A stretch of DNA of 64,000 bases. Source: Gemmatimonadota bacterium (GTDB lineage Bacteria > Gemmatimonadota > Gemmatimonadetes > Gemmatimonadales > GWC2-71-9). This document shows positions 52,908 to 64,000 of the stretch, one piece after another; position 1 is the stretch's first letter; the number at the start of each line of letters is the position of its first letter. Below the pieces are notes generated by a model. That model saw nothing but the letters and a program-made list of their open reading frames with translations. It did not search any database and was not told the DNA's origin. The position numbers and the translations under genes are program-made. The stretch covers positions 23,506 to 87,505 of the forward strand of contig JAZDCY010000028.1 of the NCBI GenBank assembly GCA_036679645.1, given 5' to 3'.

Positions 52908-52943
52908 GGCCTCAAGCTACGGAGGGTGGTAAGGCACCGCAAG

Positions 52944-53551
52944 ATGGCTCAGTATCACGACTTACTGCACATCGCGACTACCGCAGCCGAGGCTGCGGGA
53001 AGGTACATCCGCGAGGTCGAGCGGCCGCATCCGGACTCGTGGGACCGGAAGGCGGCGAGCGATTTGAGGAATTATCTCCTCATGCGCCGTCGGCCGAGGT
53101 CCGCTGGATCGTAGATCCACTGGACGGTACGACGAATTACCTGCACGGGTTCCCGGCGTACGCGGTCAGCATCGCGGCAGAGGTCGACGGCCAACTCGCG
53201 GCGGGCGTCGTGTTGGATGTACCGCACGACCGGCTGTACACCGCAGTGGCTGGCGGCGGCGCGTTCTGCGACGACGCACGCCTCTCGGCGTCGTCGGTCG
53301 ACGACCCGCAGCATGCGCTGCTGGGAACGGGGTTTCCCTTCAAGCACCCGGCCGTGGAGCGACTGGACGAGTACGCTGCTCAGTTCAGCGCGTTGCTACC
53401 CAAGACCGCGGGTATCCGGCGGGCAGGATCGGCGGCGATCGATCTTGCCCATGTTGCAGAGGGCCGCTTCGACGCGTTCTGGGAGTTGTGGCTGGCGGGG
53501 AACCACGTAATGCACGCGTGGCTGTTGGAGCGCTTGCGGGCGGTTGCCTAG
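52944..53551 (+). pseudogene. suhB: Inositol monophosphatase (SuhB) copy 1, frameshifted and internally deleted
   Basis: N-terminus 'AAEAAG..I' in one frame and 'WIVDPLDGTTNY...GTGFP...RRAGSAA.DL' in another (switch near 53065); the 'VT..D..AE' and 'PWD.AAG' segments are missing. Confidence 0.85.
53091..53494 (+). repeat. 404-bp direct repeat, left copy (partner 59360-59763)
   Basis: Hand alignment: gap-free, about 34 mismatches, last 114 bp identical. Confidence 0.92.
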
Positions 53552-53554
53552 AGT

Positions 53555-53935
53555 CAGGATGCGATCTCTCATCTCGCCGGCCCGTACCGGATCACACTGG
53601 CGGTCCCGTCGTCCAGGCGCCCGAGGCACCATCGCCAGCGTGCGCTGGATCGCGGACCCACTCGACGGCACGATCAACTACGTTCGCGCCTCTCCCGCCT
53701 ATGCGGTGAGCATCACCCCGAGGTAGATGGGCTATTGGCTGTAAGCGTGGTGCTCAACGTCGCCCGCGAACCGACGTATGCGGCGGTCGCGGGCGGCGGG
53801 GGGGTCTGTAACGGGACACGCCTGTCGGTCTCTGCGGAAGACGATCCCGCCAGGCGTTGCTCGGCACGGGGTTGCCATTCAAGATCGGGCGGCGGAGCAG
53901 TTGGACGAGTACCGATGCAGTTCAGGCGCCAGCGG
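53555..53935 (+). pseudogene. suhB: Degenerate suhB copy 2
   Basis: 'VRWIADPLDGTINY', 'AVAGGG', 'LLGTGLPFK', 'QLDEY' spread over several frames; ends approximate. Confidence 0.8.
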
Positions 53936-54143
53936 CCATCAGTACGGGGGAGACCGAGTGTGCAATTTTGGCCGCCGAAAGTGTCCAATCTGGAGCCACC
54001 GCAAACATCTACAGACTTGCCGTGAACGTGAGAGCCCGTTGGGGTCCTCTCGGTTGTCGACCAACGGAAGGCCCGCCCGGATGACAACTCGGAGCGAATT
54101 GGCGGAGGTACCTATAACCTCTATTCGCCGAGGTCAGGAATGA

Positions 54144-54413
54144 TCACGCTCGCCCCACTCGCAGCCCTTCGGGCCCAGGGCGCGGTTCGCACGTTCGCGA
54201 ATTCCAGGTTAGCAAGAACGGTCCAATGAAGTTCGGACATATTGATCCCAACAAGCATCGATGCCAGCCGACCTCGAGTGTCTCGATATTGACGCCGAGA
54301 GCATGGGACTGTACAACGGTCTCATTATTCACGAACTCAACGACACGGGCGATGTAGTCAATTCCTTCGAAAGTGCAGGCGGACCAGAATCGCAACGCTC
54401 CGGACGACATCAA
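54144..54413 (-). CDS. Possible small hypothetical protein or remnant
   Basis: Begins directly after the propeller stop; no recognisable motif. Confidence 0.25.
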   Translation of the reverse strand: MMSSGALRFWSACTFEGIDYIARVVEFVNNETVVQSHALGVNIETLEVGWHRCLLGSICPNFIGPFLLTWNSRTCEPRPGPEGLRVGRA

Positions 54414-55610
54414 TCAATTCACGGACCTCGGCGAAGCTAGTCTGTATCTCCCCAGCCGTTGGACGCCAAGCGAATCACGTTCGACGCCATACACGTGGTA
54501 GTCCGTGACAAGCATTACACGAAGGGCGGCGGGTAGGGTAACCCGGAAGACATGCACGCCGCTTGCGTCGAAAACGTCCCACGTCTGGACCTCGGAGTCG
54601 TCCTTCGAGTAGACGCGGACCCATAATGCTCCACCTTCGGTGGCGATCACCCTCCCTACGGCCGGCTTGCGGGACGGTATGGTAAGGAGCCCCCTCAGCT
54701 CCCTTCTGAGCGTGCGCATCTTCCTTTGAACGCTATCCCGTTCTCGTGGCGACAGTGGGTACCGGCGGCTCTCCATTGTGATGACCCTTCGCCTTTCGCC
54801 TGTGACCGAGTACTCAGCTACAGTGTATTCGCGGCCAGAGGTTTGAAAGACTGTCCCGGAGTATGTTGCCGTCCAACTCCCGCGGATGCCGAAAGGAACC
54901 TCTGCAACGGCCGCAACCCCCCGGCCTTGGTACGCCACCATCGCGGCCGTGTCACTCCATGATATCACCGTATCGTGTCTCCCCGTCCCCGTCCTGGTAT
55001 CAACGCGCATCACCGTCGTCAACCCATCCCCCGCGGGATCAGGCGGCGAACTCCAAACAGGTCCCACTTGAATCAGGAAGCCTACGTTCGGCATCCAAGC
55101 AATGTCCTCGACGTTCATCCACGCAATAACTGTTGTGTCCCGAACGTAGTGCCCATCTCGGGAGAACAAGGTGAGCCTTGCTGCGGCCCGATCCCAGACT
55201 GCCAGTGAGTCGGCCATCCATACCAATCGAGCTGGCCACCTAAACTCACCGGGCCCGGATCCCTGTCGACCAAAGGCCTGAATGAAATGGCCCGTGCTGT
55301 CGTAACGCAGAACCTGATGCCGTTGTGCGTCGAGCACATAGATAGCACCCAAGTGATCAACTTCCACGTCCCAGATCTGCATGAATTCATATGCAGTATC
55401 ACCGAGTGCCTCTCCAATCTTCAGGTCTTCCTCAAGAACGATCGGGCGTAGAGTGGAGCGGCGTTGAGCTAGGTTGTGAACGTACTCCACGCCACCTACG
55501 GTATCGTTCCACACGGTCCTCCCCGTGTTTCTGTCAGCGTCGTCGGCGCAACCTAGGGAAACCAGTGAAGCCACGGAGAGAGGGCCGATCACAGCTCTAC
55601 ACAACACCAT
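54414..55610 (-). CDS. 6-bladed beta-propeller (NHL/TolB-like) lipoprotein A
   Basis: Lipobox 'SLGC'; 'VD..G.IYVLD', 'FGRQGSGPGEF', C-terminal 'WDVFD..G', 'RDSLGVQ'; start may be 55610 or 55640. Confidence 0.85.
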   Translation of the reverse strand: MVLCRAVIGPLSVASLVSLGCADDADRNTGRTVWNDTVGGVEYVHNLAQRRSTLRPIVLEEDLKIGEALGDTAYEFMQIWDVEVDHLGAIYVLDAQRHQVLRYDSTGHFIQAFGRQGSGPGEFRWPARLVWMADSLAVWDRAAARLTLFSRDGHYVRDTTVIAWMNVEDIAWMPNVGFLIQVGPVWSSPPDPAGDGLTTVMRVDTRTGTGRHDTVISWSDTAAMVAYQGRGVAAVAEVPFGIRGSWTATYSGTVFQTSGREYTVAEYSVTGERRRVITMESRRYPLSPRERDSVQRKMRTLRRELRGLLTIPSRKPAVGRVIATEGGALWVRVYSKDDSEVQTWDVFDASGVHVFRVTLPAALRVMLVTDYHVYGVERDSLGVQRLGRYRLASPRSVN

Positions 55611-55630
55611 ACCTGTCGCCTTCGACCCAT

Positions 55631-56128
55631 CTACGGGCACTCCACTTTCGCTTCCTGACCGCGCGGGTCAACGTGACAGAAGACCTCTTCGGATCCGACG
55701 GACGTGCTCCATTCGGCTAGGGGCTCGCCGTGATGGCCGACAATCCGGAGCAGCCGTGCACCCCGGTGCGACACTAGAACGGTATCAAGCGTCCAGGCAC
55801 CGCCAATCTCCACGCTCACGGCGGACCGGCCGCTGCATGTTGCAGTCAATGCATGCCGTAGCGCGGAAACGTGCACTGCAACGTCCGAGGTCGCCGAGTC
55901 GTGATCAGTCTTGGCAAACCGCAGCCCCAGCTGTACACCCCTCAGATCAGGAAGCAAGCGAACGACGACCTCAGTGGACGACCCGGCGGCCCCCTGCATC
56001 GTGCGGCATGCCAGTCGTGCCTCGGATCCTTGTTCGAAGGCGTATTCAGTATTTCCGCTACCCGTCGTATGGAGCCAGCTTCCACCTACGAGGGCGAGCG
56101 AAAGAAAGCGGAGTACTTGTGTGGTCAT
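55631..56128 (-). CDS. Hypothetical secreted protein (165 aa, 4 Cys)
   Basis: GGAG SD, hydrophobic N-terminus, beta-rich sequence; lies between peptide 1 and propeller A. Confidence 0.65.
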   Translation of the reverse strand: MTTQVLRFLSLALVGGSWLHTTGSGNTEYAFEQGSEARLACRTMQGAAGSSTEVVVRLLPDLRGVQLGLRFAKTDHDSATSDVAVHVSALRHALTATCSGRSAVSVEIGGAWTLDTVLVSHRGARLLRIVGHHGEPLAEWSTSVGSEEVFCHVDPRGQEAKVECP

Positions 56129-56217
56129 GGTTGCTCCGGGTCGGCCAACTAGGGGTGCAGGTGCGGTATGCGTCAGACGTTCCAGTCTTACGTTAGTTCA
56201 ACCCAGTTTTTGCTTCC

Positions 56218-56454
56218 CTACCCCTCCGGTATGTGAATGCACCTCGACGAACCGCCGCTCGTGCATGATGCGACGCAACTACCACTCTCGGCTGCACAAC
56301 TACAGCCCGTGTTTGAAACGGTGCATTCACAACTCCCGCTGCCGCATGTTGCACTATCAGCGCGTAGAACCTTCGAATCAAGGAACGCGGCACCGACGGT
56401 GGCCCACACAGCGAGTGCTGCCGCTAGCGCCAGGCCGCGAGCTGCTCTTAGCAT
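56218..56454 (-). CDS. Cys-rich secreted peptide 1 (78 aa, 8 Cys)
   Basis: AAGGAAGGA SD before ATG 56454; signal-like N-terminus; core DSATCGSGSCECTVSNTGCSCAAESGSCVASCTSGGSSRCIHIPEG. Confidence 0.8.
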   Translation of the reverse strand: MLRAARGLALAAALAVWATVGAAFLDSKVLRADSATCGSGSCECTVSNTGCSCAAESGSCVASCTSGGSSRCIHIPEG

Positions 56455-56534
56455 GATATTCCTTCCTTTCATGGAACCTGTCAACGTTCACCGCACCTTC
56501 ACAGCCGACAAGCGGCGCACCCCATTTGATCGGT

Positions 56535-57290
56535 CTAATAGGCAGCTCCAAGTTCACGCCTCCGCGTCGCGGCGCGCTCCAGCTCCGAATCTACGATTCC
56601 CTTGATCAGTTCCCACCTCGTGCCTTCGACGCGCTTCCCATTGATGAACAAGGTCGGAGTAGCGAGCACCACTAGCCGCGACGCGAGCTGTCGATCCTCT
56701 AGCAAGACATCTCTCACCGCTTCAGTCTCCGCGCATTGGATCAGTGGATCTGCGCCGATGCCGAGAGAATCGGCCAGCTCCTTCAGGTACGCCACCCCCG
56801 CAACGGCGAGACGGTGCTGGTTCTTGAAGAGTGCATCGTGGTACTCCCAGAAACGACCGGCGCGACCGGCACAAACAGCCGCGAGCGCTGCCGCCGTTGC
56901 ATGCGGATGAAGTTCCTGAAGAGGCAGATGCCTGAACATGAGCTGAACACGATCCGCGTTGCGCCCCACGAGATCGTGGAGAGAGTCTGCAATCAGCGCG
57001 CACGCCGGACACTCGAAGTCGGCGAACTCGACAATCTGAACTTCGGGAATTACCGCGCCGCGGGTGGCCCCCCCATTCGTATCAAGATCGAACCAGGAGA
57101 CGGCCGTCGCGTGCTTGGCAAAAGCTTCGATGTTTGTGAACCGGAGGGCCACCGATCGCTCGAGGGATTGAAGCGCGGCGGTCGAGTCTCGCATGTCGCT
57201 TCTGAGGATCAGGGTGATAAACGCTTGGCCGACTACTAAGAACGTGAGCAGCCCGAGAAGAGTCCCCTCGGTGTTCCTGTCCGGTTTCAT
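56535..57290 (-). CDS. DsbA-family thiol:disulfide oxidoreductase 1 (membrane-anchored)
   Basis: N-terminal TM; 'EFADFECPAC', 'RHLPL..HP.A', 'FWEYHD.LF', cis-Pro 'TPTLFING'; ATGA overlap with propeller B stop. Confidence 0.9.
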   Translation of the reverse strand: MKPDRNTEGTLLGLLTFLVVGQAFITLILRSDMRDSTAALQSLERSVALRFTNIEAFAKHATAVSWFDLDTNGGATRGAVIPEVQIVEFADFECPACALIADSLHDLVGRNADRVQLMFRHLPLQELHPHATAAALAAVCAGRAGRFWEYHDALFKNQHRLAVAGVAYLKELADSLGIGADPLIQCAETEAVRDVLLEDRQLASRLVVLATPTLFINGKRVEGTRWELIKGIVDSELERAATRRRELGAAY

Positions 57291-58516
57291 CCTATCGGCT
57301 CCTGAACTGAGTACACTCTGACGCTCGTTGGCTCGGTGGGGCTGAAATGCAGTCCCACAGCACGGTGGTTCCGTACTGCGAGTATTCGGGCTTGGAATGT
57401 TACCGTGCCACAAAACGACCGTCGCGGCAGTGAGAACACATCGTACCTTGCCGAATACGAGTGGGGACCAGCGGTTGGGCGCCTCACAAGCAGGAAGTAG
57501 CGAGACGCGAACAGCTCGAGTACGGGAGATTTTGTCCTGGGAATGAGGCCGCGCACAGCGGATTCCGTGATGCCGGTCGAGCCACTGAGCGAGAGGGCAG
57601 CCTCAACGTCGTCCGCGGATACCGGGACCGTATCGGCGGGCCGCTGCACGGTCCAGGTCGTATCCCCCCCAAGAAGTGCCGAGATGAAGTATCGACGGGG
57701 CTCGGCGGTCAAGATGGAGCCGTCCGGAGTCAGCGCCCACACCGTGCGCGTCGCGAGGTCATAGGGCAGATTAACAACGCTGATTGTCCGCTCGGACCTG
57801 ACCCGCACCGCTGAGCGTACGGGGTACGGCCCTAGCCGAGTGTGGTCCGTGCCAGTCGTGTCGACGATCCTTATGACCTGGGAGACGGAGCCGTCACTCT
57901 CAGGGATTTCGAGCCCGAACGCGATATGCCCAGAGTCACTGACCGCGACCGGCGCGGGCAGACCCGCCGCCGCCTGGCCGAAGATCGTGAACGATGATAG
58001 CCTCCCATCCCCCAGCGACAACGAGAGCGCTTCCTGTCCACGCACATTCCAGACGTTGATCCGGCCCGATCCGCTAACCGTCATCCCGACGGGACCCGGT
58101 GCCAGTCGATGACCGATGTCTGCCAGTTGCTGTTCGCGCAGCAGGTGGCCGTCCTTGGCGAAGACTTGGACTACACCGCCACCGAGCCCGCTCAAGACGT
58201 AGATATTGCCGTCATCATCTATGTCAACATCCACGCTACCAGGCCGTAGCGTGGCCGCAGTGGAATCCCCTCGCGTCAGCTCGGCGAGAAGCCGGATATC
58301 GAGGCGCTCGCCATCACAACGGAACGTGCTGGGGCTAGGACCGTCACCCTCCGGTGAATTGAGTTTCAGATTGGCCCGCTCTGTCAGACACGCGGTGTTC
58401 TGAGAAGAAAACAGCAGAATGAGAACGAACGCTAGTATAGAATCGCCGTTTCGCCTGCGCCCGAGTCGGTGACTTGAATGGGGGATATCGAATGCTCGCG
58501 GTCGCATCTTAGACAA
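57287..58516 (-). CDS. 6-bladed beta-propeller lipoprotein B (divergent)
   Basis: Hydrophobic N-terminal segment ending 'NTAC'; 'DIDDDGNIYVLS', 'VQVFAKDG.LLR', 'WALTPDG', 'YDVF'. Confidence 0.75.
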   Translation of the reverse strand: MSKMRPRAFDIPHSSHRLGRRRNGDSILAFVLILLFSSQNTACLTERANLKLNSPEGDGPSPSTFRCDGERLDIRLLAELTRGDSTAATLRPGSVDVDIDDDGNIYVLSGLGGGVVQVFAKDGHLLREQQLADIGHRLAPGPVGMTVSGSGRINVWNVRGQEALSLSLGDGRLSSFTIFGQAAAGLPAPVAVSDSGHIAFGLEIPESDGSVSQVIRIVDTTGTDHTRLGPYPVRSAVRVRSERTISVVNLPYDLATRTVWALTPDGSILTAEPRRYFISALLGGDTTWTVQRPADTVPVSADDVEAALSLSGSTGITESAVRGLIPRTKSPVLELFASRYFLLVRRPTAGPHSYSARYDVFSLPRRSFCGTVTFQARILAVRNHRAVGLHFSPTEPTSVRVYSVQEPIG

Positions 58517-58559
58517 GACGATCTCCGTTCACGGCGCCTAGCTCAACAATCATCGTGGA

Positions 58560-58760
58560 TCAAGTTTCATTACCGTTGCGGCTGGTGACGCACGCCTGGT
58601 TACAGCATTCGTCGCAGTCCGGCCCCTGGCAGCTCGGGGGACACTTGGCCTGACAGTAGCGCCACGTGTAGGGATCCGGGCACGTGGAAGGCACCTCCAC
58701 TGGCGACGCCATGCCAAGCACGAGTAGCGCCGCGTTCGCGAGCACTGCTACTCCGAACAC
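58560..58760 (-). CDS. Cys-rich secreted peptide 2 (at least 66 aa, 8 Cys)
   Basis: Hydrophobic leader then TCPDPYTWRYCQAKCPPSCQGPDCDECCNQACVTSRNGNET; first gene of the cassette; start uncertain. Confidence 0.75.
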   Translation of the reverse strand: MFGVAVLANAALLVLGMASPVEVPSTCPDPYTWRYCQAKCPPSCQGPDCDECCNQACVTSRNGNET

Positions 58761-58848
58761 CCCCTGAAGCTTCCTGGTCTCGGTTCCCTCTTTCTCGCAT
58801 GTCCCTTTTCGAACGTTGCGTATAGGGTTCGACGCTCATCAGGACCGC

Positions 58849-58882
58849 CACTTGCGCGCACCACTAGCAATACTCGCAAGTG
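58849..58882. promoter_or_regulatory. Candidate operator (8-bp inverted repeat) in the divergent promoter region
   Basis: CACTTGCG-N18-CGCAAGTG between peptide 2 and the HTH gene. Confidence 0.35.
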
Positions 58883-58981
58883 CAGGCTGCGACCGCTATG
58901 ACCTCTCGCCCGAGCGGCGCCTGCCTCTTGCGTCGCACCACGCGCGTGCGTCTCTTATCGGTCCGCGTTGCGGAGGGCCAA

Positions 58982-59383
58982 ATGGACACTATCTGTACAA
59001 TTCTTACCGCGCTCGTACCTGCCCGATCCCCAGAGACCTGTCAGCTAGTGCGGGTGCTCGCGGAGCACGGCGGGGAGTTCGAGGCCGCGGACATGGCGGC
59101 GCGGCTCTCGGGCTTCCGCACCCGACAGCACATGGGACGCGTCCTACATGCGGAGGGCCTGCCGCAGCTGACCGAACTCGCCGGCTGGATTCGCGTGTTA
59201 CGGTGGGTCTTGGAGTGGGAGCAGAACGGACGCGCGCTCGCCAACCTCTCGCTGTTGCGCGGGCGTGACCCCGCCGTCCGCTATCGGCTGGTCCGCAAGC
59301 TCACGGGCCGCCCATGGTCAGAGGTGAGGCTGCTTGGTGCGGGATGGGTCATGCTCAAGCGGCCGATGTGCGGTGGATCGTAG
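58982..59383 (+). CDS. AraC-like HTH regulator, C-terminus truncated or fused at the suhB repeat
   Basis: GGAGG SD; 'AADMAARL.G.RTRQHMGRVL..EGLP....L.GWIRVL', 'RLVRKLTG..WSE'. Confidence 0.55.
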   Translation: MDTICTILTALVPARSPETCQLVRVLAEHGGEFEAADMAARLSGFRTRQHMGRVLHAEGLPQLTELAGWIRVLRWVLEWEQNGRALANLSLLRGRDPAVRYRLVRKLTGRPWSEVRLLGAGWVMLKRPMCGGS

Positions 59384-59847
59384 ATCCGCTGGACGGCACG
59401 ACGAACTACCTGCACGGGTTCCCGGCGTACGCGGTCAGCATCGCGGCAGAGGTCGACAGCCAACTCGCGGCGGGCGTCCTGTTGGACGTACCGCACAGCC
59501 GGTTGTACACCGCGGTAGCCGGCGGGGGGGCGTTCTGCGATAAGACGCGCATCTCGGTGTCGTCGGTCGACGACCCGCGGCATGCACTGCTCGGCACGGG
59601 GTTTCCGTTCAAGCACCCGGCCGTTGAGCGATTGGACGAGTACACGGCGCAGTTCAGCGCGTTGCTACCCAAGACCGCGGGTATCCGGCGGGCAGGATCG
59701 GCGGCGATCGATCTTGCCCATGTTGCAGAGGGCCGCTTCGACGCGTTCTGGGAGTTGTGGCTGCGCGGAGTGACGGCGGGTGCGGTGGTTGCGGGAAACC
59801 CCACAATGCACAAATGGCTAATCGAGGAGCTCCGGAACGCCTATTGA
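59360..59847 (+). pseudogene. suhB: suhB copy 3 (5'-truncated; contains the right 404-bp repeat 59360-59763)
   Basis: 'WIVDPLDGTTNY...' with no N-terminus; also lacks 'PWD.AAG'. Confidence 0.85.
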
Positions 59848-59958
59848 AGAGTTGGAGACCGAGTGTCCAGAGAGGACTAACCTTCGTGATGTCCAAGCCA
59901 CTCAGTCTTTGTGAATGCGGGCTCATCAGCCTGCACTGTTCAGCGGATCCCCGGTGCA

Positions 59959-60145
59959 GATGACTCCGACGGAGCGCGCTTGCGCGCTCGAGACCCACGT
60001 TGTGGGAGCACCAGGGGAATCCGACACTTTCGGCCGAGCGGTAGATGTCGCGGCTGGACCGGGAGATCGAGTGTACGTGCTCGACGGGTACTACAACCAC
60101 CTGTTGGGCTTCGGGGCCAATCGGAACTTGCGAAGCACCGCCCGG
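59959..60145 (+). pseudogene. Remnant of a fourth beta-propeller gene, interrupted by IS21 sequence
   Basis: 'VVGAPGESDTFGRAVDVAAGPGDRVYVLDG..NHLLGF' resembles the first blades of propellers A and C; ends approximate. Confidence 0.6.
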
Positions 60146-60151
60146 TGGGCC

Positions 60152-60688
60152 CGGCCACAGTGCCTGTCGACGGGGCCTGCGCGTGCGCTACGTCCGGCTG
60201 CCTCACCTCTTGCACGACCTGGCGCTGGCCCAGGCCGACGGCTCCTACGGCAAACTCTTGACCGCCTTAGCGAAGACCGAACTCTTGATACTGGATGACT
60301 GGGGCCTGGCACCGCTCGGCGATCGCGAACGGCGTGACGTGCTGGAAGTCGTCGAAGATCGCTACGGCCGCCGGGCCACGCTCGTGACCAGCCAACTCCC
60401 CGTCGAGCACTGGCACGAACTCATAGGGGACCCCCACCCTTGGGGATGCTATCCTCGACCGCCTGGTACACGGTGCGCACCGGATCACGCTGAAGGGCCG
60501 GTCGATGCGCCGCAAGGAAACGACCAAGAAGGAAACGAAGAAGAAACCGACAACGAAAGAAGGAAACTAGGCCAGCACCCACACCCTCGGTGTCGGTGTC
60601 CGACATCAGCCGAACTGACTGTCCGACTTCGACCGAACCAGGTGTCCGACATCAACCGAACTGGGTGTCCGGATGCACCGAATCCGCA
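60152..60688 (+). mobile_element. istB: IS21-family fragment: 3' half of istB (frameshifted) and right end
   Basis: 'ADGSY', 'LLILDDWG', 'TSQLP..HW', then after a C-run slip 'DAILDRLVH.AHRI.LKG.SMR'; ends in ...CGCA. Confidence 0.9.
60596..60688 (+). repeat. Four 23-bp-period terminal repeats of the IS21 right end
   Basis: GTGTCCGACATCAGCCGAAC-like units at 60596, 60619, 60642 and 60665. Confidence 0.88.
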
Positions 60689-60690
60689 AT

Positions 60691-61212
60691 ATGCAGGATG
60701 GCTCCGGAAGCAAAGGGAACGAACTGTTAACAGACCTGGACGAGCTGGCCAGAGAGGGAGCTCGGCGGATGCTGGTGAGTGCGTTGGACGCTGAAGTGAC
60801 CGAGTATGTCGAGCGATATCGGATTGAGCGAGACGAAGCGGGCCGCGCCCTGGTGGTGCGCAATGGCAAAGCCCGTCCCCGCAAGGTGACGCTGGGTGCT
60901 GGTACTGTTGCGGTGAGGGCGCCTCGGGTGAATGACCGTCGTGTGCGGGAGCAGTTCACGAGCAAGATCTTGCCTCCGTATATGCGGCGGTCGCCCAAGG
61001 TGGCGGAGGTATTGCCGGTGTTGTATCTGCGCGGTCTCTCGACGGGAGATTTTCGTGAGGCGCTGCCGATCCTGTTGGGCGATGACGCATCGGGTTTGTC
61101 CCCTACGACGATCACACGATTGACGGCTGCGTGGGAGGGAGAATACCGGGAGTTTCGCCGATCTGCGCGACCGGGAGTATGTGCGCGTCTGGGTCGACGG
61201 GATCCACTTCTT
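60691..61212 (+). mobile_element. IS256-family transposase fragment (N-terminal third, frameshifted, truncated)
   Basis: 'AREGARRML..AL.AEV', 'RNG', 'PRVNDRR', 'FTS.ILP.Y.RRS', 'LYL.GLSTGDF', then 'YV.VWVDGIHF' in another frame. Confidence 0.88.
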
Positions 61213-61410
61213 CCTCAACCGCTGCTACAAGCTTGGTGCGTCGCCGCCAAGCGCCGCTGAAGAACCGCATTGCCCGCTTCAATTCGGTGTAATCGCCGTG
61301 CCCCGTTACTGTCAACGGCCAGACGACGATGAGTCAGGCATGTTGTGACAGCTCCGTAAGTGCCCGCAAGTGTCAATGCAACCCCGTCGCGTAGCTGAGT
61401 CGAGGCCGAC

Positions 61411-62514
61411 CTACGTCCCGCCTCCCTGACTGCCGGAGTGGTCGATGAGCTGCAAGAGTTCTACATATTCGTAGCCGGCCTCGGTCAGTCGCCTTCCGAG
61501 GATGAGATCTTCCGCCACTTGCCATATCATGAACTCACCCGGGAGTCGCAAGATCGACGACAAATGACCGTCTGGAGTAAAAACTCTCCATGTACGAAAC
61601 CCGTCCGAGGCAACCTCGAAGTCACTCAGCCAGAACTGACCGTTGGCTCCTGCAACGAGTTGATCGTAGAGTCGCACCACGACGTGCGGCGTCTTCGAGA
61701 CGGCGCCATTACTCCAATCGTGCCCGTCGAGGCGAACGATGCTCCAGGCACTGCCGTCCCACCGGCGGATCGCGTGAGCGTCGGAAGTAGACACAAGCAA
61801 GCGTCCGTCGCGGATCGTAGCGGACGGGCGTGGACCATCGACGATCATCTCCAATCCGTATGCTCCCACGGCCTCCCGTGGCCGCCACCAACGCCCCCCG
61901 ACGGAAAGAAGCACACGGTAGGCGGAGTCCTCCGGTGCAGGGTCGCGATGGAAAAGTGCAATCGAGAACGAATCCCGGGTTATCCCGCTAAGTCTCCGGG
62001 GATCCAGGCCATGTGAGAAACCGATTGCAAACCCTGTGTCGTACTCCGAGATCCACTCTGCTTGTCCGTGCTCTGGCAGCCGTGGTCTGAAGGACCGAAC
62101 GTAGCTACCCTCGGGATCGAACACCGTGACTTGCGACGTCAGTCCGTCGAGGGCGATCAAAGAATCCGGGTTCAGTGGTGCGATGTGTCTGAGATTTGTA
62201 AACTCCCCAGGGCCGCGGCCACGTCGCCCTATGCGCCTGATCAAGCGACCCGACCGGTCGTACTCGCGTATCTCAGGAACGGCACCGTTCGAGACAAATA
62301 TTCTATCCTCGCGTAGAAAGCCACTGAAAGTTCGGCCCATTACTTCCTGGTCCGATCCGACAGGGGCGCCGATGGTCTGCACAATCGAAACCGACAACGT
62401 ATCAGTCACAGAAGCCGCGGGATCATTCAGGTGAATGGCGCGATCTCCTCCACAGCCGCCTAGAACTGCGTGGGCGAGCAGAGCCATATCTAAGACAGCG
62501 CGTCTCATCGTCAC
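61411..62514 (-). CDS. 6-bladed beta-propeller lipoprotein C
   Basis: Lipobox 'LGGC'; 'IGRRGRGPGEF', 'VTVFDPEGSYVRSF', 'WRVFTPDG', 'EAGYEYV'; GTGA overlap with DsbA 2 stop. Confidence 0.85.
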   Translation of the reverse strand: MTMRRAVLDMALLAHAVLGGCGGDRAIHLNDPAASVTDTLSVSIVQTIGAPVGSDQEVMGRTFSGFLREDRIFVSNGAVPEIREYDRSGRLIRRIGRRGRGPGEFTNLRHIAPLNPDSLIALDGLTSQVTVFDPEGSYVRSFRPRLPEHGQAEWISEYDTGFAIGFSHGLDPRRLSGITRDSFSIALFHRDPAPEDSAYRVLLSVGGRWWRPREAVGAYGLEMIVDGPRPSATIRDGRLLVSTSDAHAIRRWDGSAWSIVRLDGHDWSNGAVSKTPHVVVRLYDQLVAGANGQFWLSDFEVASDGFRTWRVFTPDGHLSSILRLPGEFMIWQVAEDLILGRRLTEAGYEYVELLQLIDHSGSQGGGT

Positions 62515-63143
62515 TTTGTCGACGAGACGAGTGCCATCAGCTCGCGGGAGGACAAGCGGGCCGTGACCATCCGACGCCGCGTTAGGATCGTCGGGGTTCC
62601 CGAAATCCGCAGCTCCATCCCCGCTCTCAGGTCTTCCGTAACCAGTGACCTTGTGTGCTTGGATTCGAAGCAGTCGTCAAAGGATACTAGGTTTGGAACT
62701 GCACTTGCGCGCGCGGATGCCGGGCCGAGAAACGGCTCCAACTGCTCGCGGTTCCCAAAAAGCCACCTACTGAACTCAACGAACCGACCCTGCTGAGAGG
62801 CGCACTCTGCGGCAACCGATGCCAAGAACGACGACGAGTCCACACTGGGGTGAGCGAAGTGCCTCAGACGCACCGTGAACGAAGAGACGTCCGTCGTCAA
62901 GATGCTGTCTATCGTCCCAAAGAGCTCCGCGCAGTAGACGCATCGATAATTTGAGAATATAACCAGAGTATCAGGGCCGCTCCCGAGAAGTTGGCCCCTG
63001 CTATTCATGCGATTGAAAGTGTTCGACGATATCCTCGCAACTGGATAAGGTGCGCGCGGTCGCAGCCTGTACCAACCGTAAGTTGCGACAGCGAATACCA
63101 GCAGCGTAACCGAGGCAATTTTGGCTAGGCTCGATCCAGTCAT
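62511..63143 (-). CDS. DsbA-family thiol:disulfide oxidoreductase 2 (membrane-anchored)
   Basis: N-terminal TM; 'IFSNYRCVYC', 'RHF', 'AAECA..QGRF', 'GTPT'. Confidence 0.88.
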   Translation of the reverse strand: MTGSSLAKIASVTLLVFAVATYGWYRLRPRAPYPVARISSNTFNRMNSRGQLLGSGPDTLVIFSNYRCVYCAELFGTIDSILTTDVSSFTVRLRHFAHPSVDSSSFLASVAAECASQQGRFVEFSRWLFGNREQLEPFLGPASARASAVPNLVSFDDCFESKHTRSLVTEDLRAGMELRISGTPTILTRRRMVTARLSSRELMALVSSTK

Positions 63144-63181
63144 CTCGGGCCCTGTTCCTCTGAGTGGTCTTCAACGGGATT

Positions 63182-63210
63182 CGGTCCCCGCCATATTGGG
63201 ACGGGGACCG
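63182..63210 (-). terminator. Strong GC hairpin between peptide 3 and DsbA 2
   Basis: CGGTCCCCG...CGGGGACCG 9-bp perfect stem, 18 nt after the peptide stop; no U-tract. Confidence 0.6.
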
Positions 63211-63228
63211 GCAACTGGCGCGCCTTTG

Positions 63229-63474
63229 CTACTCTAGAATGGGGGGACCACCTTCCGGAAGCGTATCAGTCCCTTGCTTGAAGTAATAGTAGTAGCGCCA
63301 CTGGCAGCAGGACCCGTCCGAACACTCTTTCGTACAGTCGCTGACACAGAGACTGCCCGAGAAGGCTCCGCACGGCACCTGCGTAGCGGCCTGTCTGGGT
63401 GCAGCAAACGATATGCCAGCGACGGCTATTGCCGCTGCGGTTAGGCTGCGAGTGAGAAGCTTGCGCCACGTCAT
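63229..63474 (-). CDS. Cys-rich secreted peptide 3 (81 aa, 6 Cys)
   Basis: AGGAGG SD; Sec-like leader MTWRKLLTRSLTAAAIAVAGISFAA; core QVPCGAFSGSLCVSDCTKECSDGSCCQWRYYYYFKQGTDTLPEGGPPILE. Confidence 0.85.
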   Translation of the reverse strand: MTWRKLLTRSLTAAAIAVAGISFAAPRQAATQVPCGAFSGSLCVSDCTKECSDGSCCQWRYYYYFKQGTDTLPEGGPPILE

Positions 63475-64000
63475 ATTTTCCTCCTGGGATTGGGTTCTGA
63501 AAAGCGCCTGTCTGGTCAGTCTAACCTGAAGCCAGCATCGTGACGGTGAAGAACAAGACAACTGAGATATGTAGTGTTCTGTGCAAGCCGATGACTGCAG
63601 ACCACCTCTCATTCGATCGATGAAGGCTTTCCACCTGAGTGCTTCCTGGTCGAACCCGCAGCCGGCCGCGAATCCTTGCGGGGGCAAACTGGCTACACCC
63701 GCTTGAGTGGATCTCACCCGTCGCGATCCCGCTGCGAGACACTAACATATGTTCGACAGTGCTCGAGTGGCCCAAGCTAGGATCGGCACCGCGAATAATC
63801 CTGTAAGCCGGCCGGCACAAGGAGTCAGCTTTGGCGCGTTCACCACTGCCTCCTGTTACGGTGTATCCAAGATCGACCCCTTCCAAGAACGGACAATCAC
63901 ACGAGAGGCGCTATGACCGCCCGCGCGGAGAACCGATGGAGGGGACACCGGGACGGTTTCCGCGGACCGGGGTATGACCTCTCGCGCGCTCGTCGACCAC

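Follow-up and report, generated by a model that had tools for sequence, protein, structure and literature searches.

The window analyzed here is a 64,000-nucleotide stretch of contig JAZDCY010000028.1 from a Gemmatimonadota bacterium (assembly GCA_036679645.1, positions 23,506 to 87,505). Between positions 54414 and 63474 of the window lie two operons, A and B, in which small cysteine-rich peptides with export-type leaders are encoded together with DsbA-family oxidoreductases and beta-propeller proteins. A sequence-only reading of this region had proposed a modular, diversifying system of exported disulfide-rich mini-proteins, each with a dedicated oxidase and a surface propeller. The parts that it named are all present. 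The open reading frame (ORF) list and the sequence itself place three leader-bearing ORFs with 8, 8, and 6 Cys, two DsbAs, and three propellers at the positions listed below, and the cassette parts of both operons are on the minus strand. We scanned 16 window ORFs against Pfam and NCBIfam; propeller B, peptides 1 to 3, and a 165-residue ORF fell below every family cut-off. The cassette family is real, recurrent, and undescribed, and it lies outside every family tested. Its features in the window are as follows.

54414..55640, minus strand: propeller A, 408 residues, lipobox-like Cys (PF17170, E 2e-7); homologue at the same position in genome G400
55631..56128, minus strand: 165-residue ORF with a hydrophobic leader; orphan, no family
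56218..56454, minus strand: peptide 1, leader and 8-Cys core, net charge about -3; two homologues in G400
56535..57290, minus strand: DsbA1, active-site motif CPAC, N-terminal membrane anchor (PF13462, E 2e-17; PF01323, E 2e-13)
57287..58516, minus strand: propeller B, 409 residues, divergent (phmmer E 6e-6 to paralogue C5:77082)
58560..58760, minus strand: peptide 2, hydrophobic stretch and 8-Cys core, start uncertain (from the ORF list)
61411..62514, minus strand: propeller C, 367 residues, lipobox-like Cys21 (PF17170, E 1e-6); six-bladed NHL-type fold
62511..63143, minus strand: DsbA2, active-site motif CVYC, N-terminal membrane anchor (PF13462, E 1e-14); orthologue in genome G147, 38% identity
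63182..63210, no strand assigned: hairpin with a 9-bp stem between peptide 3 and DsbA2, read from the sequence; no U-tract
63229..63474, minus strand: peptide 3, leader and 6-Cys core, aromatic C-terminal strand, charge about -3; 7 homologues

The claimed 4-bp overlaps between DsbA and propeller genes occur in both operons. DsbA1 and propeller B share ATGA at 57287-57290, and DsbA2 and propeller C share GTGA at 62511-62514, an overlap that is lost if the start is placed at ATG 62508 instead. The hairpin was also found as described; it is absent from the terminator scan listing, and promoter and terminator scans of the window returned no more than chance levels. GC content is 0.58 to 0.62 inside both operons versus about 0.66 in the preceding kilobases. 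Radical SAM, lanthipeptide, YcaO, MNIO, and C39 families had no match among the 16 ORFs, on a contig that ends at 64000, so the reported absence of such tailoring enzymes and of a peptidase-ABC exporter held for the ORFs scanned.

We asked whether the small ORFs are genes. A filter for ORFs of 40 to 125 residues with a hydrophobic leader and a Cys-rich core, in its strict form, returned 25 ORFs genome-wide (4.05 Mb; about 0.06 per 9 kb), and 3 of the 25 are in this region. Peptide 3 had matches in 23 of 400 other genomes at E ≤0.01 and in 4 genomes at E <1e-8 (7 ORFs). These homologues are 35 to 43% identical to it. W3, five Cys (C35, C43, C47, C51, and C57), and two Gly (G36 and G40) are invariant, a Cys pair is almost invariant, and the tail is aromatic. 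All 4 genomes with strong matches have a DsbA2-like gene directly before a propeller gene on one strand; the order is peptide-DsbA-propeller in two and DsbA-propeller-peptide in the other two. Peptide 1 had homologues in 1 of the 400 genomes (G400), which carries two copies with 41% and 53% identity and the Cys spacing kept. The G400 locus runs propeller B, DsbA1, peptides, propeller A, which is the order of operon A; its propeller B homologue is in fragments, placed before DsbA, and frameshifted genes and an integrase piece are nearby. This recurrence with the same partners, in 4 genomes for peptide 3 and in 1 for peptide 1, agrees with the proposal of modular, diversifying cassettes.

The small ORFs could instead be chance reading frames, and peptide 2 is the one that invites this explanation. 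It has an odd start and no homologue in any of the 400 genomes. Its in-frame GTG start is not followed by a basic N-region, and the nearby upstream ATG, which has the better binding site, is in another frame; therefore, peptide 2 may be a damaged gene. For peptides 1 and 3 the chance explanation is already contradicted, because their Cys frames and leaders are kept in other genomes, purine-rich ribosome-binding sites precede their ATG codons, and such ORFs are enriched over controls (below). Overall, we consider it extremely improbable. Judged by conservation, the peptides are real genes where homologues exist.

Other searches with these ORFs gave less. A word-indexed protein search with peptide 3 recovered the query alone among 3 candidates, and such blanks mean little because the genome searches did recover peptide 3 homologues. 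The best Atlas score for peptide 3 was 0.83, to an unnamed, mostly Acidobacteriota cluster, and that for the 165-residue ORF was 0.89; both are leads only. A G400 ORF at the position of the 165-residue gene looked similar by eye and was rejected as a homologue at a nonsignificant E of 0.11. Some other small Cys proteins were encountered along the way. Relatives of peptide 3 with 4 to 6 Cys, which have a Cys-Gly start and an aromatic tail, occur at L163-L169 with a short thioredoxin-like gene and a propeller; they are conserved in several genomes of a single family. Longer exported Cys proteins (120 to 155 residues) stand directly before a propeller without DsbA at L029:2198-2665, L177:4086-4457, L210:871-1284, L082:4612-5010, and L304:2394-2786. 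Small lipoprotein-like 9-Cys ORFs on the opposite strand to DsbA (L078:5736-5963, L085:4091-4312) form a separate conserved pair. A 10-Cys leader peptide adjoins a prepilin-type gene at C29:305-2858, on a 5.5-kb contig that does not look native to the bin.

Both window DsbAs exceeded the Thioredoxin_4 (PF13462) cut-off, with DsbA2 below that of PF01323. Both have a Thr-Pro loop near the C-terminus (ATPT, GTPT) and a hydrophobic N-terminal segment, and the nearest solved structure to DsbA1 is BdbD (3EU3, E 2e-9). Their CxxC types are common to housekeeping and cassette copies. A search with DsbA2 found about 360 matches in 185 of the 201 genomes of the order (the unpublished genome G107 enters this tally only). 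We took 60 of these loci, at about 10 kb each; 40 came from high in the list, and 20 were lower matches chosen as likely housekeeping. Loci were classed as housekeeping when the DsbA scored at least 150 bits against the housekeeping DsbA of the window's genome (28 loci), leaving 32 others. A same-strand leader ORF with at least 6 Cys lay within 3 kb in 23 of the 32 non-housekeeping loci, a propeller in 21, and both in 16. None of the 28 housekeeping loci had a peptide, and none had a propeller. The Fisher P value for this enrichment is 2e-9, which overstates it because the 28 controls are one orthologous group and 20 were hand-picked as likely housekeeping. In a quick tree, the housekeeping DsbAs formed one branch (Shimodaira-Hasegawa-like approximate likelihood ratio test support, 95), with both window DsbAs outside it on long branches. 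The housekeeping DsbA of this genome adjoins VKOR.

Therefore, the peptides are strongly tied to the non-housekeeping DsbA class. The notion of a dedicated oxidase for each peptide needs correcting, because some cassettes do without one or have a TlpA-like protein in its place (see below). The expected enrichment of small Cys ORFs was clear beside non-housekeeping DsbA genes but weak beside propeller genes. One further gene was noted at an operon B orthologue: in G147, a PF03692 gene (CxxCxxCC), possibly for a tailoring enzyme, follows the propeller (L072:2257-3753).

The lipobox-like Cys residues of propellers A and C were read by inspection, and propeller B, with no Pfam match, is tied to the family by phmmer to its paralogue alone. 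The predicted model of propeller C has a predicted local distance difference test score (pLDDT) of 90, and its best matches are six-bladed NHL domains. Brat and TRIM71 head these matches (Z 23.5 to 19.7; Brat NHL Z 23.5, root-mean-square deviation 3.3, 266 residues aligned). They are eukaryotic and 13 to 18% identical, and the fold alone shows no function. Propellers number 12,213 representatives at E 0.001 and about 20 in this genome, where a small Cys protein lies upstream in 7 of 20 propeller matches. We also sampled 160 loci by a propeller C motif (the best 80 of 417 genome matches and the best 80 of 409 metagenome matches; 69 of the best 80 genome loci are titled Gemmatimonadota). A same-strand 6-Cys peptide was present in 9 of the 160 and an opposite-strand one in 1. 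DsbA was present in 5 of the 160, 4 of which also had the peptide. Therefore, most of these propellers operate without peptides, and the cassettes draw on a minority of a large propeller family. The proposed pairing of peptide and propeller needs correcting accordingly, and in sister cassettes a DUF4876 lipoprotein and a TonB-dependent receptor take the place of the propeller.

These counts bear on an explanation without direct partnership, in which DsbA works on the peptide and the propeller, a common type of exported protein, is carried along by the same mobile cassettes. Propellers are abundant and mostly peptide-less, as it predicts, and across 40 cassettes, peptide similarity correlates weakly overall with that of the propellers (rho 0.10). 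However, a given peptide family keeps a given propeller subfamily across families and sites, and same-strand peptides outnumber opposite-strand ones 9 to 1. We consider this explanation very unlikely. The pairing was followed in 19 cassettes with a clear peptide homologue (z of at least 7), in 16 of which the propeller's best match was in the same cassette. In addition, the peptide-propeller pair between suhB and map in genome G002 matches the pair on contig C12 of this genome (45% for the peptide, 45% for the propeller) at another site and with another regulator. Therefore, peptide and propeller move together, and on the sequence comparisons the cassettes are modular and diversified.

A different role for the propeller would be in a production line, as a periplasmic chaperone, an efflux-pump hand-off factor, or a peptide-tailoring enzyme. 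Its translational coupling with DsbA in both operons fits such a role, as does the occurrence of related propellers in exporter loci of the AcrB and MacB types. Some six-bladed propellers are enzymes, among them PAL, which propeller C matches at Z 18.8, and human NHLRC2 (6gc1; Z about 16.0 to 16.4) joins a thioredoxin-like domain to a propeller of this kind. The propeller C subfamily also has invariant R173, R180, D181, E81, and several Trp. Even so, across 40 cassette propellers the kept features were Gly, Pro, and a GPGEF blade motif, with no catalytic-type residue in common. The propeller tracks the peptide family even without DsbA, and 7 of the 23 peptide-DsbA loci had no propeller match by the first profile, of which a wider profile recovered two. 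A production role is quite unlikely in our estimate. As to the efflux loci themselves, PF17170-type propeller lipoproteins sit among AcrB-family pump pairs with an outer-membrane efflux protein at C5:77115-89447 (L022, L040) and at L180-L182.

The peptides were compared as a set of 48 cores from 40 cassettes. This set is nonrandom, because its loci came from searches with DsbA, peptide 3, propellers, and the regulator, and one spurious ORF (L073) was removed from it. The Cys count is even in 42 of the 48 cores. Net charge is negative in 42, neutral in 5, and positive in 1, and therefore the peptides are unlike membrane-lytic peptides. As a check on charge bias, removal of the Arg filter added two ORFs near cassette DsbAs and three near housekeeping DsbAs (one with 8 Cys), and none of those gained had a convincing leader. 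Among 42 related peptides, none was above a Pfam or NCBIfam cut-off. When modeled alone, peptide 3 gave low confidence (pLDDT 57), with a hairpin at residues 43-63 scoring 73 to 78. Its cofold with propeller C scored 0.04 (mark, 0.32); the fold of the peptide is uncertain, and this result weighs neither way.

The main rival is a toxin-immunity system, in which the disulfide peptide would act as a receptor-targeted bacteriocin of narrow range, with the propeller as its immunity protein. Strain-variable cassettes piled at one site near insertion sequence (IS) and integrase genes would suit it. There are one or two peptides per propeller, and peptide-less propellers could be orphan immunity genes. 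There are also precedents. Bacteroidetocin (class IIf bacteriocin) loci, as far as PMC6671954 covers them, pair a 4-Cys peptide with a thiol oxidoreductase, and enterotoxin STII, in the account of PMC5985334, is exported by Sec, DsbA, and MacAB-TolC. A MacB-type permease follows DsbA in 9 of the 32 non-housekeeping loci versus none of the 28 controls, which would correspond to the STII route. However, 42 of the 48 peptides are acidic, and a propeller of 370 to 410 residues is large for an immunity protein. Importer-type transporters partner the peptide in sister cassettes, and there is neither a double-glycine leader nor a C39 exporter. We regard the toxin-immunity explanation as unlikely. With regard to the permease loci, a duplicated MacB/FtsX permease of about 820 residues follows the cassette DsbA at L074, L075, L079, L080, L083, L088, L101, L102, and L106, and ECF sigma-like genes lie upstream at L075 and L101. 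No MacB gene was found in the window; the rest of this genome was not searched for MacB.

Small proteins of the NVEALA family (PF14055) are encoded beside six-bladed propeller lipoproteins in Bacteroidota. The window cassettes are like those loci in having a small exported Cys protein beside a PF17170-type propeller, and propeller C matches Bacteroides propellers from structural genomics (4RAA, Z 18.1; 3S9J, Z 19.5). However, the cassettes here also include DsbA and a divergent regulator. The likeness did not extend to the peptides themselves, because PF14055 matched none of the 3 window peptides and none of the 42 related peptides; a genome-wide PF14055 search also had no match, and neither did its control. 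No characterization of NVEALA-propeller loci was found by full-text searches.

Closest in kind to the cassettes are secreted disulfide peptides with their own oxidoreductase. Bacteroidetocin loci share this feature, but according to the portion of PMC6671954 that describes them, their peptides have a double-glycine leader, a peptidase ABC transporter exports them, and an immunity gene is absent, whereas the window has Sec-type hydrophobic leaders, no such exporter among the 16 ORFs, and a propeller. The STII route is likewise similar in its Sec-type leader, DsbA disulfides (here predicted), and, in 9 of the 32 related loci, a MacB-type permease after DsbA, but STII uses the housekeeping DsbA and, in the sections of PMC5985334 on its export, has no propeller partner. 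Enzyme-modified clusters of ribosomally synthesized and posttranslationally modified peptides (radical SAM, lanthipeptide, YcaO, MNIO/bufferin) have a tailoring gene that is without counterpart in the 16 ORFs. Ligand-capturing propeller lipoproteins are known in XusB and BtuG, as part of PMC13142918 describes. The resemblance lies in the lipoprotein propeller and in the DUF4876, TonB-dependent receptor, and DUF6850 genes of this genome's sister cassettes. In contrast, the same portion of PMC13142918 describes XusB as a seven-bladed protein that binds small siderophores and has its transporter encoded next to it. The window propellers, judged by the model of propeller C, are six-bladed, and no TonB-dependent transporter lies in the window; propeller C aligns with BtuG structures at a template modeling score of 0.36 to 0.40. 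No curated family (Pfam, NCBIfam) or paper describes the cassette, as the sequence-only reading had surmised, and full-text searches turned up no description of the gene set, although small-protein survey supplements or subscription papers could list the peptides.

The same genome holds sister cassettes. Of the 25 filter ORFs, 13 were judged convincing, and 12 adjoin a propeller, a CxxC thioredoxin-fold gene, or a DUF4876-like gene. Propeller cassettes on contigs C32, C97, C88, and C12 each have a divergent regulator, and on C32 a TlpA-like protein (AhpC-TSA, E 2e-5, below cut-off) replaces DsbA. On C97, C8, C7, and C19, an 8-Cys peptide and a TlpA-like CxxC gene occur with a DUF4876-like lipoprotein (C97:5107-12449, L031; C8:90459-96666, L036; C7:76756-83601, L037; C19:370-6680, L027). 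The C97, C8, and C7 sister cassettes include a TonB-dependent receptor, and C19 has three tandem copies. Sister cassettes with a TonB-dependent receptor have no propeller. Pfam scans covered the C97 set, the C19 thioredoxin, and the C7 DUF6850 gene, and the other sister parts were assigned by likeness. DUF4876 proteins are proposed transporter lids in the part of bioRxiv 2023.03.17.533168 that treats them, and PMC10434189, in part, reports DUF4876 as iron responsive in Bacteroidetes. Separately, some peptide cassettes have a GWxTD-like or a PDZ protein after the propeller (C97:586-2670, C32:49498-50079); the tail of the PDZ protein is rich in Cys.

The acidic peptides and the lidded TonB-dependent transporters of iron-responsive type in sister cassettes favor secretion and recapture. 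In this proposal, which we prefer tentatively and at somewhat short of an even chance, the cassettes encode variable lock-and-key ligand-receptor pairs, and the peptide is secreted and then recaptured by the propeller. Going by sequence shape, a small acidic protein would be exported by Sec and its leader cleaved. From what is known of DsbA biology, the cassette DsbA would oxidize the peptide to form three or four disulfides, and would itself be reoxidized, probably, by the genome's single VKOR. The propeller lipoprotein would then recapture its cognate peptide in a strain-specific manner, a step suggested by coinheritance and by known ligand-binding propeller lipoproteins. The likeliest use would be a private good, such as a metal or nutrient carrier or a cue, kept private by variation.

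Several observations weigh against secretion and recapture, beginning with the scarcity of peptides and DsbA beside propellers and the weak overall correlation already described. DsbA likewise comes out on top in 6 of the 9 cases that could be tested, and therefore cotransfer accounts for coinheritance as well as binding does. Many of the 19 peptide-propeller pairs are reciprocal near-kin, and for the best peptide match of peptide 3 the propeller ranks 8 of 39. Several related propellers are in AcrB-type efflux operons. Peptide 2 is without homologues, and the 165-residue ORF is an orphan that was its own sole match among 250 candidates. No TonB-dependent receptor, kinase, or other transducer is present in the window cassettes, and if all Cys are oxidized, metal binding is impossible.

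The surroundings of the operons suggest how such cassettes accumulate. The divergent helix-turn-helix gene, the three suhB copies, and the IS21 and IS256 pieces had been overlooked in the sequence-only reading. A fourth propeller remnant, which it did report, is present with a weak NHL match just under the cut-off, but on the plus strand and running into istB.

52926..53551, plus strand: suhB copy 1 (inositol monophosphatase; PF00459, E 4e-35), left flank of the cassette array
53634..53925, plus strand: suhB copy 2, degenerate (69% identity to copy 3 over 290 nt; tblastn)
58880..59383, plus strand: helix-turn-helix regulator, divergent, AraC-like by its paralogues, which match HTH_18 below cut-off (E 4e-4)
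59349..59847, plus strand: suhB copy 3 (PF00459, E 3e-33; 91% identity to copy 1 over 420 nt)
59915..60298, plus strand: propeller remnant, running into istB (NHL, E 9e-4; genome propeller profile, E 0.0045)
60152..60694, plus strand: IS21-family istB piece (PF01695, E 5e-26; 94% identity to the copy on contig C9)
60673..61260, plus strand: IS256-family transposase piece (PF00872, E 4e-14; NF033543)

Three direct repeats with 23-nt spacing were seen at the end of the IS21 piece (60595-60671).

In relatives, suhB is single and adjoins map, and 4 of 5 relatives have an intact single suhB. G001 and G004 have no cassette between suhB and map, G003 has one unrelated gene there, and G002 has a CxxC protein, a 4-Cys peptide, a propeller, and a divergent regulator. 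A homologue of the regulator at 58880-59383 occupies the corresponding slot in G002. On contig C88 of this genome, an IS256 end and duplicate pieces of the regulator and of map come first, and a propeller, a Cys protein, a regulator 91 to 92% identical to the window's, and map follow. The arrangement of these sequences marks the interval between suhB and map as a variable slot for cassettes, flanked by duplicated pieces of suhB, the regulator, and map (evidence regions: window 52926-53925 and 59349-59847, L029:226-612, and L191-L194). We infer that the window and C88 form one suhB-to-map array of at least three cassettes, with the join to C88 putative. Arrays may grow by recombination via the duplicated suhB, regulator, and map flanks.

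Logan contigs from run X1, probably the source sample, are identical to the window letter for letter over 53495-58953 and 61110-63999, and X2, a sediment metagenome from another study, holds parts of operon A with 0 or 1 differences at a depth of about 3. No RNA data set was listed as holding the sequence. One Logan contig extends 411 nt beyond the window end and holds a regulator-like piece. The IS256 piece has a depth of about 550 versus 89 and is likely multicopy and collapsed in the assembly. A loose Logan end at 53497 leads into further suhB-like letters. Judging by such ends, some of the gaps within the suhB and IS copies appear to be collapses of the assembly.

A cassette-specific role for the regulator was considered and rejected: 5 of 24 non-self loci have cassette parts within 1.5 kb, and about 12 of the proteins are long. 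In several genomes of the family, window regulator homologues fused to a C-terminal 7-bladed-type propeller were found, at L198:466-1887, L201:499-1932, L202:475-1890, and L216:490-1881 (4 scanned). One translated copy has no leader, and therefore the fusion is probably a cytoplasmic one-component regulator.

Disulfide-rich mini-proteins are known mostly from animals and plants. A broader proposal, which we hold to be doubtful, is that the Gemmatimonadota as a phylum carry a combinatorial library of secreted, knottin-like mini-proteins, in which every member has its own oxidase and a cognate receptor in the envelope. Strains would build these pairs into arrays at fixed slots by recombination via duplicated flanks, as a lock-and-key system for private goods or kin recognition. 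Either a six-bladed propeller or a TonB-dependent transporter with a lid would be the receptor, and the whole would have no described equivalent. If true, varied bacterial mini-proteins that come with a folding enzyme and a candidate receptor would offer stable scaffolds and natural binder pairs. The cassettes would also supply a candidate substrate for DUF4876-lidded transporters and a first function for part of the very large, uncharacterized PF17170 family.

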